Of a DNA stretch of 34,781 nucleotides, positions 1,307 to 2,312 are shown in pieces (position 1 is the first letter of the stretch; each line of letters opens with the position of its first letter). The stretch lies in the IMG/VR virus record IMGVR_UViG_2880361019_000004, positions 1 through 34,781 of that record. The stretch is one strand, 5' to 3'. Both the position numbers and the translations under genes were made by a program. The notes under the pieces were generated by a model that had not been told where the DNA came from, ran no database searches, and worked only from the letters and a program-made list of their open reading frames with translations. Source of the stretch: a virus (taxonomy: Duplodnaviria > Heunggongvirae > Uroviricota > Caudoviricetes).

Positions 1307-1505
1307 ACTAACCACAGACCCAAAGTTACAGGCTGCGCGAATTGCAGCTGATATTACAATTGCAGCAATGACATCCACCAGGGGTAACTTTACCTCTTTT
1401 CATACAGCAGGTGATTCATCCGCTATGCAGTTATGGAACGCGTGCTTTTCTGATGTAATTCGTGCAATCAGCGAGTCAGTTGACCTTCGCGAACCGCAAA
1501 AATAG
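1299..1505 (+). CDS. Hypothetical small protein
   Basis: 68-aa ORF with AGGA upstream of the ATG; the only ORF in this stretch; 3' end overlaps the convergent minus-strand gene at 1468-1668. Confidence 0.35.
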   Translation: MDKLTTDPKLQAARIAADITIAAMTSTRGNFTSFHTAGDSSAMQLWNACFSDVIRAISESVDLREPQK

Positions 1506-1668
1506 CGCATCTTGGGGTACACAGGATCTGCATAGCTATCCACATTGCGGTGGCGAAGTTTCGATCCTGTAATGTATCTTCATCAAGTCCTGAACGTAGC
1601 GCATTGATAATTTCCGCGCTTAATCTTTCCAGGCCTTTGGTATCAGGTTGCTTTTTATTCTTGTCCAT
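1468..1668 (-). CDS. Hypothetical small protein (66 aa from internal start MDKNKK)
   Basis: GAGGA Shine-Dalgarno 8 nt before the ATG at 1666-1668; the longer 78-aa form from 1704 has no ribosome-binding site. Confidence 0.5.
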   Translation of the reverse strand: MDKNKKQPDTKGLERLSAEIINALRSGLDEDTLQDRNFATAMWIAMQILCTPRCAIFAVREGQLTR

Positions 1669-1704
1669 GATTATTGTCCTCTGATTGGTATATAAAGCGC
1701 CCAT

Positions 1705-1740
1705 GAAAATAAAACCGACAGGAGAAACTGCCGGTTTGTA
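1705..1740. terminator. Hairpin with flanking T-runs (candidate bidirectional terminator)
   Basis: Stem CCGACAG/CTGCCGG (one G-U pair) followed by TTTGTATTG on plus and TTTTATTTTC on minus; sits between the 84-aa and 66-aa minus-strand genes. Confidence 0.4.
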
Positions 1741-1743
1741 TTG

Positions 1744-1998
1744 TTACATCATGGTGCTGTCAGTTCCGGGCTGAGCCGGTTCTGGTTGCTCTGGCTGCGC
1801 GTCGGTTTTCGGTTCATTATCAGCATCACTGGCCGCTGCTGCTGGCCCAATAAGTTTTTCCAGCACCTCATCAACGTAAGTGTCGATTTGTGCCTCAAAA
1901 TCCTTGCGGACCTGCGCTTTCAGCAACTTATTTACTTCACCGGAATACAGTGCCTGTTTTACCAGGTCTTCAGTGACGGTGCCTTTAATTTCTGGCAT
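1744..1998 (-). CDS. Hypothetical acidic protein (84 aa)
   Basis: Strong AAGGAGG Shine-Dalgarno 7 nt upstream of the ATG; coiled, charged N-terminal half and Pro/Glu/Ala-rich acidic tail. Confidence 0.6.
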   Translation of the reverse strand: MPEIKGTVTEDLVKQALYSGEVNKLLKAQVRKDFEAQIDTYVDEVLEKLIGPAAAASDADNEPKTDAQPEQPEPAQPGTDSTMM

Positions 1999-2033
1999 GT
2001 ATATCCTCCTTATGCGGTAATAAAGCCCTGCAA

Positions 2034-2216
2034 TCAGGGCTGGGTCGGGTCTTTTGGGAGCGGAGTTGCCTGCGCTGTTTTACTGAGTTTTTCAGCTGCT
2101 GCGTCCTCAATTTTGCGGCGAACATAATTTCTGATGGCCTTATAACCACCACTCACCAGATATAACGCACATACTGCCGTGCAGAAATACAATAAAATAA
2201 GCTGTAAAAATGTCAT
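2034..2216 (-). CDS. Hypothetical small membrane protein (60 aa from MTFLQL)
   Basis: GGGAGGG Shine-Dalgarno before the ATG at 2214-2216; one predicted transmembrane helix (LILLYFCTAVCALYLV) then a charged tail. Confidence 0.55.
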   Translation of the reverse strand: MTFLQLILLYFCTAVCALYLVSGGYKAIRNYVRRKIEDAAAEKLSKTAQATPLPKDPTQP

Positions 2217-2312
2217 TATCCCTCCCAATTATTGACATGGTGTTGACACCGGTAATATCTGTTAGGTAAAAAGGTGCACTGCATTTTTTGCTTTGGATAT
2301 AACGATCTTTTT

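Follow-up and report, generated by a model that had tools for sequence, protein, structure and literature searches.

A NanS-p esterase cassette with DUF1378 and DUF826 genes, and a separate convergent gene pair, between gin and mom of a Mu-like Escherichia coli prophage

The DNA analysed here (the window) is a stretch of 34,781 nucleotides, positions 1 to 34,781 of the IMG/VR virus record IMGVR_UViG_2880361019_000004, and is a minus-strand Mu-like Escherichia coli prophage. At one end lie mom (1-738) and com (692-892), followed by a group of small genes, an esterase gene (2361-4415), gin, the tail genes, the head and lysis genes, and the transposase genes. The small genes are our subject. A reading of the sequence alone (the original prediction) had singled out three of them as cargo near mom, and all three open reading frames (ORFs) are present on the minus strand: gene 1, 60 residues (2037-2216, stop at 2034-2036); gene 2, 84 residues (1747-1998, stop at 1744-1746); and gene 3, 66 residues (1471-1668, stop at 1468-1470). 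The span of 1468-2228 originally given to them reflects a TTG-extended version of the first ORF. ORFs this short are frequent by chance, and the case for coding is made by protein families for genes 1 and 2 and by substitution patterns. The genes are real and do occupy accessory DNA between gin and com/mom, as had been proposed. A strong Shine-Dalgarno sequence had been claimed for each; this holds for gene 1 (GGGAGGG, 2220-2226, spaced only 4 nt from the ATG at 2216) and gene 2 (AGGAGG, 2005-2010, an ideal 6 nt ahead of the ATG at 1998), whereas that of gene 3 (GAGGA, 1677-1681, 8 nt ahead of the ATG at 1668) is moderate. Seven complete E. coli genomes match the region 900-2400 at 99.8-99.9% identity, and parts of it occur in 462 of 5426 genomes; a megablast search of phage records matched it only to two Shiga toxin (Stx) phages that contain an inserted Mu-like phage.

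All three genes had been described as unassigned. This is true of gene 3, which is an orphan; genes 1 and 2 belong to the Pfam families DUF1378 and DUF826, and the RefSeq annotation of a 99.9%-identical prophage already labels them so. Gene 1 (2034-2216, minus strand) matches PF07125 with 112.6 bits against a cutoff of 25, its residues 1-58 falling on profile positions 1-58 of 59; it also matches phrog_494 (E 4.6e-33) and is ~54% identical to copies in 309 phage records. The expected single-pass membrane protein is borne out by one hydrophobic segment at residues 3-21 (Kyte-Doolittle 19-residue mean 2.27), after which come a conserved SGGY(K/R)..R motif and a basic tail (+3.8; isoelectric point of the protein 9.3). 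From the positive-inside rule we infer a periplasmic N-terminus and a cytoplasmic basic tail. Gene 2 (1744-1998, minus strand) matches PF05696 over residues 1-55 (56.2 bits, cutoff 25) and phrog_311 over its full length (E 1e-28). Its product is acidic, as had been stated (isoelectric point 4.2, charge -9.5). The DUF826 alignment shows a conserved helical N-terminal domain, residues 1-52, and an acidic, proline-rich tail of variable length whose tip is conserved and hydrophobic (TMM, MML, TML). AlphaFold predicts helices at residues 10-17 and 20-50, with a predicted local distance difference test (pLDDT) score of 82-95 over residues 11-50, and disorder from 51 to 84. The charge of -3.5 on residues 1-52 and of -6.2 on the tail complements the +3.8 of the DUF1378 tail. 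No relative of either protein was found in the PDB, NCBIfam or PADLOC profiles. We regard a match of DUF826 to 'N37' of PDB entry 9r2l (E 0.025) as spurious; the only paper citing that entry concerns generative de novo protein design.

The esterase gene (2361-4415, minus strand) is the first gene of the cassette and ends 145 nt upstream of the DUF1378 start, on the same strand. It encodes a 684-residue sialate O-acetylesterase of the NanS-p type (Pfam SASA and DUF6645), residues 110-428 of which match NanS/YjhS (PDB 3pt5, E 1.8e-117) and residues 469-683 the C-terminal domain of NanS-p (PDB 6yp6, E 1.1e-96); at the nucleotide level it is ~70% identical to nanS-p/yjhS of Stx phages. We compared gene order in 80 IMG/VR loci that encode a DUF1378 relative. 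DUF826 directly follows DUF1378 in every one of the 80, and an esterase gene precedes DUF1378 in all 79 that have sufficient upstream DNA. About 25 of the loci are Mu-like (gin-esterase-DUF1378-DUF826-com-mom) and about 55 are lambdoid (Q/stx...esterase-DUF1378-DUF826-holin, S-R); the location of DUF826/DUF1378 ORFs between nanS-p and S has been reported (PMC10462455). The block of the lambdoid Stx phages (Sakai Sp5: ECs1207, ECs1210 and ECs1211; Stx2a_WGPS8: gp78-gp76) has the same families in the same order and orientation, an A-run hairpin after the esterase stop, a spacer with the same opposite-strand promoter and terminator, and a terminator after DUF826 (hairpin and T-run in locus L003). 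It differs in its setting, since the backbone of the window is Mu-like, with gin upstream, com/mom downstream and no adjoining holin or endolysin. Identity between the two is ~54% for DUF1378, 41-47% for DUF826 and 56-66% or more for the esterase, although residues 1 to ~105 of the window esterase are unrelated to the lambdoid N-terminus and a Pfam search detected no DUF1737 N-terminal domain in it, unlike 933W NanS-p and the Stx block.

Both small genes are, on their substitution ratios, under purifying selection: the ratio of non-synonymous to synonymous substitution rates (dN/dS) among Mu-like copies is 0.09-0.28 for DUF1378 and 0.12-0.18 for DUF826. Between the Mu-like and the lambdoid copies synonymous sites are saturated, so the association within the cassette is old. 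In a database of 5.8 billion proteins DUF1378 has ~250 clusters and 65 were found for DUF826; every source name given is E. coli or Shigella. A literature search found no study of the DUF1378/DUF826 genes and none that pairs nanS-p with Mu-like phages. The cassette ends in an intrinsic terminator at 1712-1737 (minus strand), a 10-bp stem followed by UUUUAUUUUC (-14 kcal/mol, z = -4.0), which no shuffled sequence matches in folding. A second structure, a 7-bp GC-rich hairpin at 2024-2041 (minus strand; -12.1 kcal/mol, z = -3.5), covers the DUF1378 stop codon, is followed by UUUAUUA and lies just ahead of the DUF826 ribosome-binding site; the hairpin might tune the coupling of the two genes or act in attenuation between them. 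No convincing sigma-70 promoter for DUF1378 is present in the spacer that separates it from the esterase gene. Judged by family, order and terminator, genes 1 and 2 close a NanS-p esterase cassette as its final two genes. The original prediction was right that a hairpin terminator splits genes 2 and 3, but its treatment of the three as one module does not hold, as gene 3 lies past that terminator, in a separate slot that it shares with a convergent ORF.

The genes fall into two separate units, the esterase cassette with DUF1378 and DUF826, and the pair formed by gene 3 and the convergent ORF. The reading we prefer, taken as a whole with the roles proposed below, has somewhat less than an even chance of being correct. 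DUF1378 and DUF826 would be read from transcripts that continue through the esterase gene. We suggest, tentatively and at a likelihood well short of even, that they are a membrane-anchored basic/acidic pair serving the esterase cassette; they probably do not work on their own. The likeliest role of such a pair would be to couple the esterase, which has no signal peptide, to the membrane, or to release on prophage induction.

Several observations weigh against tying the pair so closely to the enzyme. In prophages PP2 and PP5 of enteropathogenic E. coli (EPEC) E2348/69 the esterase gene is followed by PasA or PasC and then a holin gene (with insertion sequence elements between in PP5), and ~37 of the 346 phage records that matched an esterase-containing query have no DUF1378 match; the esterase thus occurs without DUF1378/DUF826, and the enzyme does not need the pair. 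Hybrid loci such as L074 join an esterase of the window type to DUF1378/DUF826 of the lambdoid type, which argues against strict co-adaptation. The 80 loci were chosen as the most similar to the query and are not a random sample of the family, and the invariant linkage could reflect a single origin and short distance instead of function. Neither homology nor experiment supplies a function for DUF1378 or DUF826.

Two of the hybrids deserve description. L074 has gin, a window-type esterase gene (99%) and then lambdoid-type DUF1378-DUF826-S-R, the switch lying between the esterase gene and DUF1378. L083, a Mu-like/lambdoid hybrid, has esterase-DUF1378-DUF826-S-R with mom/com inverted ~4 kb downstream. 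Such loci suggest that the shared cassette is a site of recombination between the otherwise unrelated Mu-like and lambdoid prophage types.

The spacer between the esterase gene and DUF1378 holds a further feature. On the plus strand, antisense to the spacer, a promoter and a terminator delimit a candidate small-RNA gene at 2243-2354. The promoter consists of a -35 box TTGACA (2243-2248), an 18-nt spacer and a -10 box TAAAAA (2267-2272); the predicted RNA would run from ~2279 to 2354 and end in a terminator stem (2312-2346) followed by U7 (fold -23 kcal/mol, z = -4.7). Reading the alignment of 36 unique spacer variants, we find a TTGAC(A/T/G) -35 box and a hairpin with a T-run in all 36. The -10 box follows after ~17-19 nt and is TAAAAA-like in nearly all, and 70-110 nt after it the unit ends in a GC-rich hairpin and T-run that abut the esterase stop codon. 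This layout is kept across at least six very different sequence types at the locus.

PasA and PasC are validated Hfq-bound small RNAs of EPEC (PMC8550237), and the minus-strand PasA (743499 to 743415) lies downstream of the esterase gene E2348C_0688 (PMC8550237 Table S6). When these coordinates are mapped on loci L105 and L107, the window candidate has the position and orientation of PasA/PasC (EcOnc51/52 in enterohaemorrhagic E. coli): just downstream of the esterase gene, on the opposite strand, with a TTGACA -35 box and a terminator abutting the esterase stop. A MAFFT alignment finds similarity only in the 5' CTGC and the terminator core, and what follows differs, the EPEC RNA being succeeded by a holin gene and the window candidate by DUF1378/DUF826. 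By position, the candidate RNA at 2243-2354 is a homologue of PasA/PasC. It is not a member of the Rfam family Esr41 (RF02676), to which it scores 22.2 bits (E 0.48), and the L003 copy 29.6 bits, against a gathering score of 102; Esr41 itself maps to SpLE1. We also considered the palindrome GGTGTCAACACC upstream of DUF1378 (TTATTGTCAACAATAA in lambdoid copies) as an RNA hairpin or operator and rejected it. Across 28 spacer variants only GTCAA(C/T) is kept, and this is the reverse complement of the TTGAC -35 box of the opposite-strand promoter. In L105 (EPEC E2348/69 PP2) the spacer between esterase and holin genes (2767-3213) consists of two tandem units of hairpin and TGTCAA box, without DUF1378/DUF826; the first unit ends the 236-nt minor form of PasA, and the 85-nt PasA is the second. 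It looks as though L105, which lacks DUF1378/DUF826, has undergone a duplication of the small-RNA unit.

The small-RNA candidate bears on whether DUF1378 could be a membrane toxin of type I-like or holin-like kind, restrained by DUF826, by the small RNA or by both, in an addiction or abortive module, as the original prediction had in part imagined. In the type I loci tisB/istR-1 and zorO/orzO a single-pass hydrophobic protein is preceded by an oppositely oriented small-RNA gene whose product can pair with the mRNA leader. DUF1378, at 60 residues, single-pass and basic in its tail, would share this anatomy together with the small-RNA gene upstream of it, whose product could act in antisense, and anatomy alone fits; the RNA would be complementary to the 5' leader of the esterase read-through mRNA that carries DUF1378. 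The disordered DUF826 tail, with its conserved TMM/MML end, has a degron-like hydrophobic tip that could mark a labile acidic partner. Yet DUF1378, unlike the toxins of those loci, has a strong, exposed ribosome-binding site and does not show the hidden translation start that type I toxins typically have. It has a protein partner, comes in every case after a 2-kb enzyme gene and probably lacks a promoter of its own. PasA-family RNAs, moreover, have many targets in trans, and in EPEC they are present where DUF1378 is absent. No Pfam, NCBIfam or PDB-profile match links the small proteins to type II toxin or antitoxin families, nor do they match other toxin, antitoxin or defence models. We give a toxin only a slight likelihood.

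A second possibility is that DUF1378 and DUF826 regulate the timing of lysis by modulating a pinholin or a signal-anchor-release (SAR) endolysin, and that they are present in the Mu-like prophage through their linkage to the esterase alone. In the ~55 lambdoid loci the pair is directly upstream of the genes for holin S, endolysin R and Rz, a place in the late operon that implies their expression in the lytic phase. P21-type Stx phages and Mu both use SAR endolysins, which makes a shared target conceivable. The antiholin pair RI/RIII of phage T4 offers an analogy, being a small membrane-anchored protein and a small cytoplasmic one; the window proteins resemble it in this and, in the lambdoid context, in lying next to a holin gene, but there is no sequence relationship, and the window copy is far from lysis genes. 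In the related Mu-like record L011 a distance of >20 kb separates the cassette from the lysozyme and spanin genes, yet the pair is intact and under purifying selection. The pair tracks the esterase and not the holin, EPEC PP2 having esterase and holin without it. Searches of Pfam and PHROG gave no match to any holin or antiholin family, and adjacency to lysis genes is confined to the lambdoid copies. On balance we regard a role in lysis timing as unlikely, and return to the pair as a partner of the esterase cassette, whose linkage is kept in a Mu-like backbone; this argues that the pair is tied to the esterase cassette and not to the lambdoid lysis cassette.

Beyond the terminator lies a variable cargo slot of ~430 bp (1278-1706), defined by its breakpoints against loci L002, L007, L008 and L009. 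On the com side, homology to other Mu-like prophages is lost at 1001-1277; it begins again at 1700-1712, by the DUF826 terminator, so that the hairpin at 1712-1737 is the right-hand boundary of the slot. The slot content of the window is found in 17 of 5426 complete E. coli genomes; elsewhere the same slot holds unrelated plus-strand ORFs (one of 86 residues, one of 175 residues with a zinc ribbon) or almost nothing.

Gene 3 (1468-1668, minus strand), recognised by its substitution pattern and distant relatives, encodes a 66-residue orphan with the motif F..AMW(I/L)AMQ..C.P. Compared with its orthologues, 12 of 15 substitutions are synonymous, and the ratio of non-synonymous to synonymous differences per site (pN/pS) is 0.07-0.08 in its own frame, the only open one of six; one opposite-strand frame, which contains a stop, scored 0.12. 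The gene is intact in 15 of 15 loci (14 relatives and the near-identical L001). On this evidence gene 3 is a real, if rare, orphan gene. It has five clusters in the same protein database, the named ones from E. coli, and an exhaustive HMMER search gave three relatives, 36-42% identical (E 1e-4 to 8e-4), in which the motif recurs. The loci of the relatives are Mu-like phages (with Mor, GemA, Mu portal and Mu F), in which they lie between the gene for DUF1804 (Mu gp27-like) and the large terminase gene; in L013 the start of the relative overlaps the DUF1804 stop. The small ORFs of this interval (L012, L013, L022-L025, L113 and L114) share the gene 3 motif at 36-42% identity but are in-line members of the late operon, whereas gene 3 of the window is in the gin-mom cargo region behind a terminator. 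None of the three original genes shows clear homology to virion or housekeeping proteins, yet the distant relatives of gene 3 are inside the Mu-like packaging region. A scan of genome contigs revealed no relative of gene 3, a metagenome scan added one distant locus, and a tblastn search of phage genomes with a distant relative gave only a match at E 0.5. No paralogue of gene 3 or of its convergent neighbour occurs elsewhere in the window. AlphaFold, from a single sequence, predicts a helical hairpin with a pLDDT of 66, too weak for a fold search. Gene 3 has no convincing sigma-70 promoter of its own.

The convergent ORF (1299-1505, plus strand) encodes 68 residues and, as originally noticed, shares 38 nt with the 3' end of gene 3. 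Its pN/pS outside the overlap is 0.22-0.26, because of which we consider it probably a real gene, and probably the partner of gene 3. In L012, L023 and L113 an opposite-strand ORF likewise overlaps the 3' end of the gene 3 relative, by ~26-29 nt, and has in common with ORF 1299-1505 an N-terminal motif, LT(T/I)D..(I/L)Q.AR(I/M).., and a C-terminal one, W..F(D/S)...(V/I)..ES. That one or both are chance ORFs in a non-coding spacer might be argued from their length, their lack of a Pfam family and their presence in only 17 of 5426 genomes, together with the weak ribosome-binding site of the plus-strand ORF and the nonsense mutation or deletion it has suffered in some copies. The synonymous bias of gene 3 in its single open frame, its integrity in all 15 loci, the invariant motif shared at 36-42% identity, and, for the plus-strand ORF, both its pN/pS and the three diverged relatives in a similar arrangement make chance very improbable.

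The partnership itself is less secure. ORF 1299-1505 is intact in 12 of 15 loci, with a nonsense mutation in L006 and a 5' deletion in L009/L019; gene 3 persists in all of these, and the ORF is dispensable. The gene 3 relatives of L013, L022, L024 and L025 have no partner ORF, and that of L114 is paired with a different convergent gene, encoding DUF4145. All these points count against a fixed pair. The DUF4145 gene of L114 (5259-6116, minus strand) encodes 285 residues and stands beside the gene 3 relative, before the large terminase gene; this site may be a hot spot for the insertion of morons in this group of phages. In L009 (E. coli AST198, NZ_AP043606) the deletion corresponds to window positions 1026-1408, removing the 5' half of ORF 1299-1505 and sparing gene 3, and com is followed by a DNA cytosine methyltransferase gene in place of mom.

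Two terminators bound this 430-bp insert, whose very small family is otherwise found beside Mu-like terminase genes. Past the end of gene 3, and still upstream of the control region of com/mom, is a 13-bp hairpin at 1164-1193 (minus strand; -21.5 kcal/mol, z = -5.5), and on the other side is the hairpin at 1712-1737, which is flanked by an A-run and a T-rich tract. A minus-strand transcript would be antisense through ORF 1299-1505 as far as 1164-1193, and a plus-strand transcript antisense through gene 3 as far as 1712-1737; from this it would be reasonable to expect that expression of either gene excludes that of the other. We suggest that the plus-strand ORF could be a moron expressed in the lysogen and that gene 3 could be read with the phage's own strand, a proposal that we find slightly more doubtful than that of an esterase-serving pair.

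The slot also raises the question of lysogenic conversion against phages, whether by superinfection exclusion through the membrane protein or by a defence pair of gene 3 and the convergent ORF. The cargo position beside mom would suit this, as would the slot at 1278-1706, which holds different small genes in different prophages in the manner of moron and defence hot spots, and the convergent DUF4145 gene in the slot beside the gene 3 relative of L114. As the only hint of expression that came to light, the DUF826 gene of Sakai Sp5 (ECs1211) showed significantly changed expression (-3.29) in a growth-phase microarray without prophage induction (PMC2241611); cross-hybridisation between prophage copies is a possible source of this signal. 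Set against these, PADLOC-DB 2.0, searched at E up to 1, gave no match for genes 1-3, ORF 1299-1505 or the esterase and nothing credible for their relatives or the alternative slot genes (a single listing, E 0.028, for the L023 ORF), and NCBIfam and PDB profiles gave only chance-level matches for the small proteins. DUF1378/DUF826 are never apart from the esterase in the loci mapped, no promoter of their own is evident for DUF1378 or gene 3, and the gene 3 relatives are in-line late-operon genes, as the overlap in L013 illustrates. The superinfection-exclusion, toxin-antitoxin or other anti-phage module originally envisaged finds no positive evidence in these profiles, and a defence or toxin-antitoxin role for the small genes is unsupported; anti-phage conversion seems to us quite improbable.

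More elaborate versions of our two units can be imagined. DUF1378/DUF826, tuned by the small RNA, might form a membrane device for the esterase, giving the NanS-p enzyme access to its substrate outside the cell, either through non-lytic release of a holin-like kind or through controlled lysis of part of the population; alternatively gene 3 and its partner might be a mutually antisense switch that keeps a function expressed in the lysogen apart from a lytic one. A dedicated membrane device, if true, would explain why the pair was never seen without the esterase in two unrelated backbones. We hold out little prospect that either is correct.

The left-hand edge of the slot has features of its own. 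A 99-residue ORF at 1007-1306 (plus strand) matches phrog_26524 (E 1.3e-43) over its first 92 residues only, and RefSeq treats it as a C-terminally truncated pseudogene; its 3' end comes from the slot insert, and its stop codon and the ATG of ORF 1299-1505 overlap (ATGGATAA). Inside it, at 1085-1112, is a promoter-like TTGACT-16-TAGGAT. Upstream of com, on its divergent side, GATC sites cluster at 930-1090 (three in 936-960 and two near 1060-1085), an arrangement that we take to be reminiscent of the Dam/OxyR-controlled mom regulatory region of Mu. Farther away, an IS66-family element (22566-25020) with three plus-strand ORFs, at 22648-23052, 23049-23396 and 23445-24983, separates the Mu F-like minor head gene from the portal gene; it is missing from the related prophage in NZ_CP189662, and because of this insertion the window prophage is probably defective.

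NanS-p esterases allow pathogenic E. coli to use the O-acetylated sialic acids of gut mucus, and strains can carry several prophage copies. The cassette described here adds one more copy, set in a new backbone, to a kind already known though not characterised in function; two tiny genes accompany the esterase in every one of the mapped IMG/VR loci. Their linkage has outlasted transfer to a Mu-like backbone without adjoining lysis genes, and this context offers a clean genetic system for studying the pair. The shared cassette, which includes a PasA/PasC-type small-RNA locus, also appears to be a bridge for recombination between Mu-like and lambdoid prophages. Gene 3 and its convergent ORF, judged from the relatives compared here, are a small, previously undescribed family with a conserved convergent overlap.

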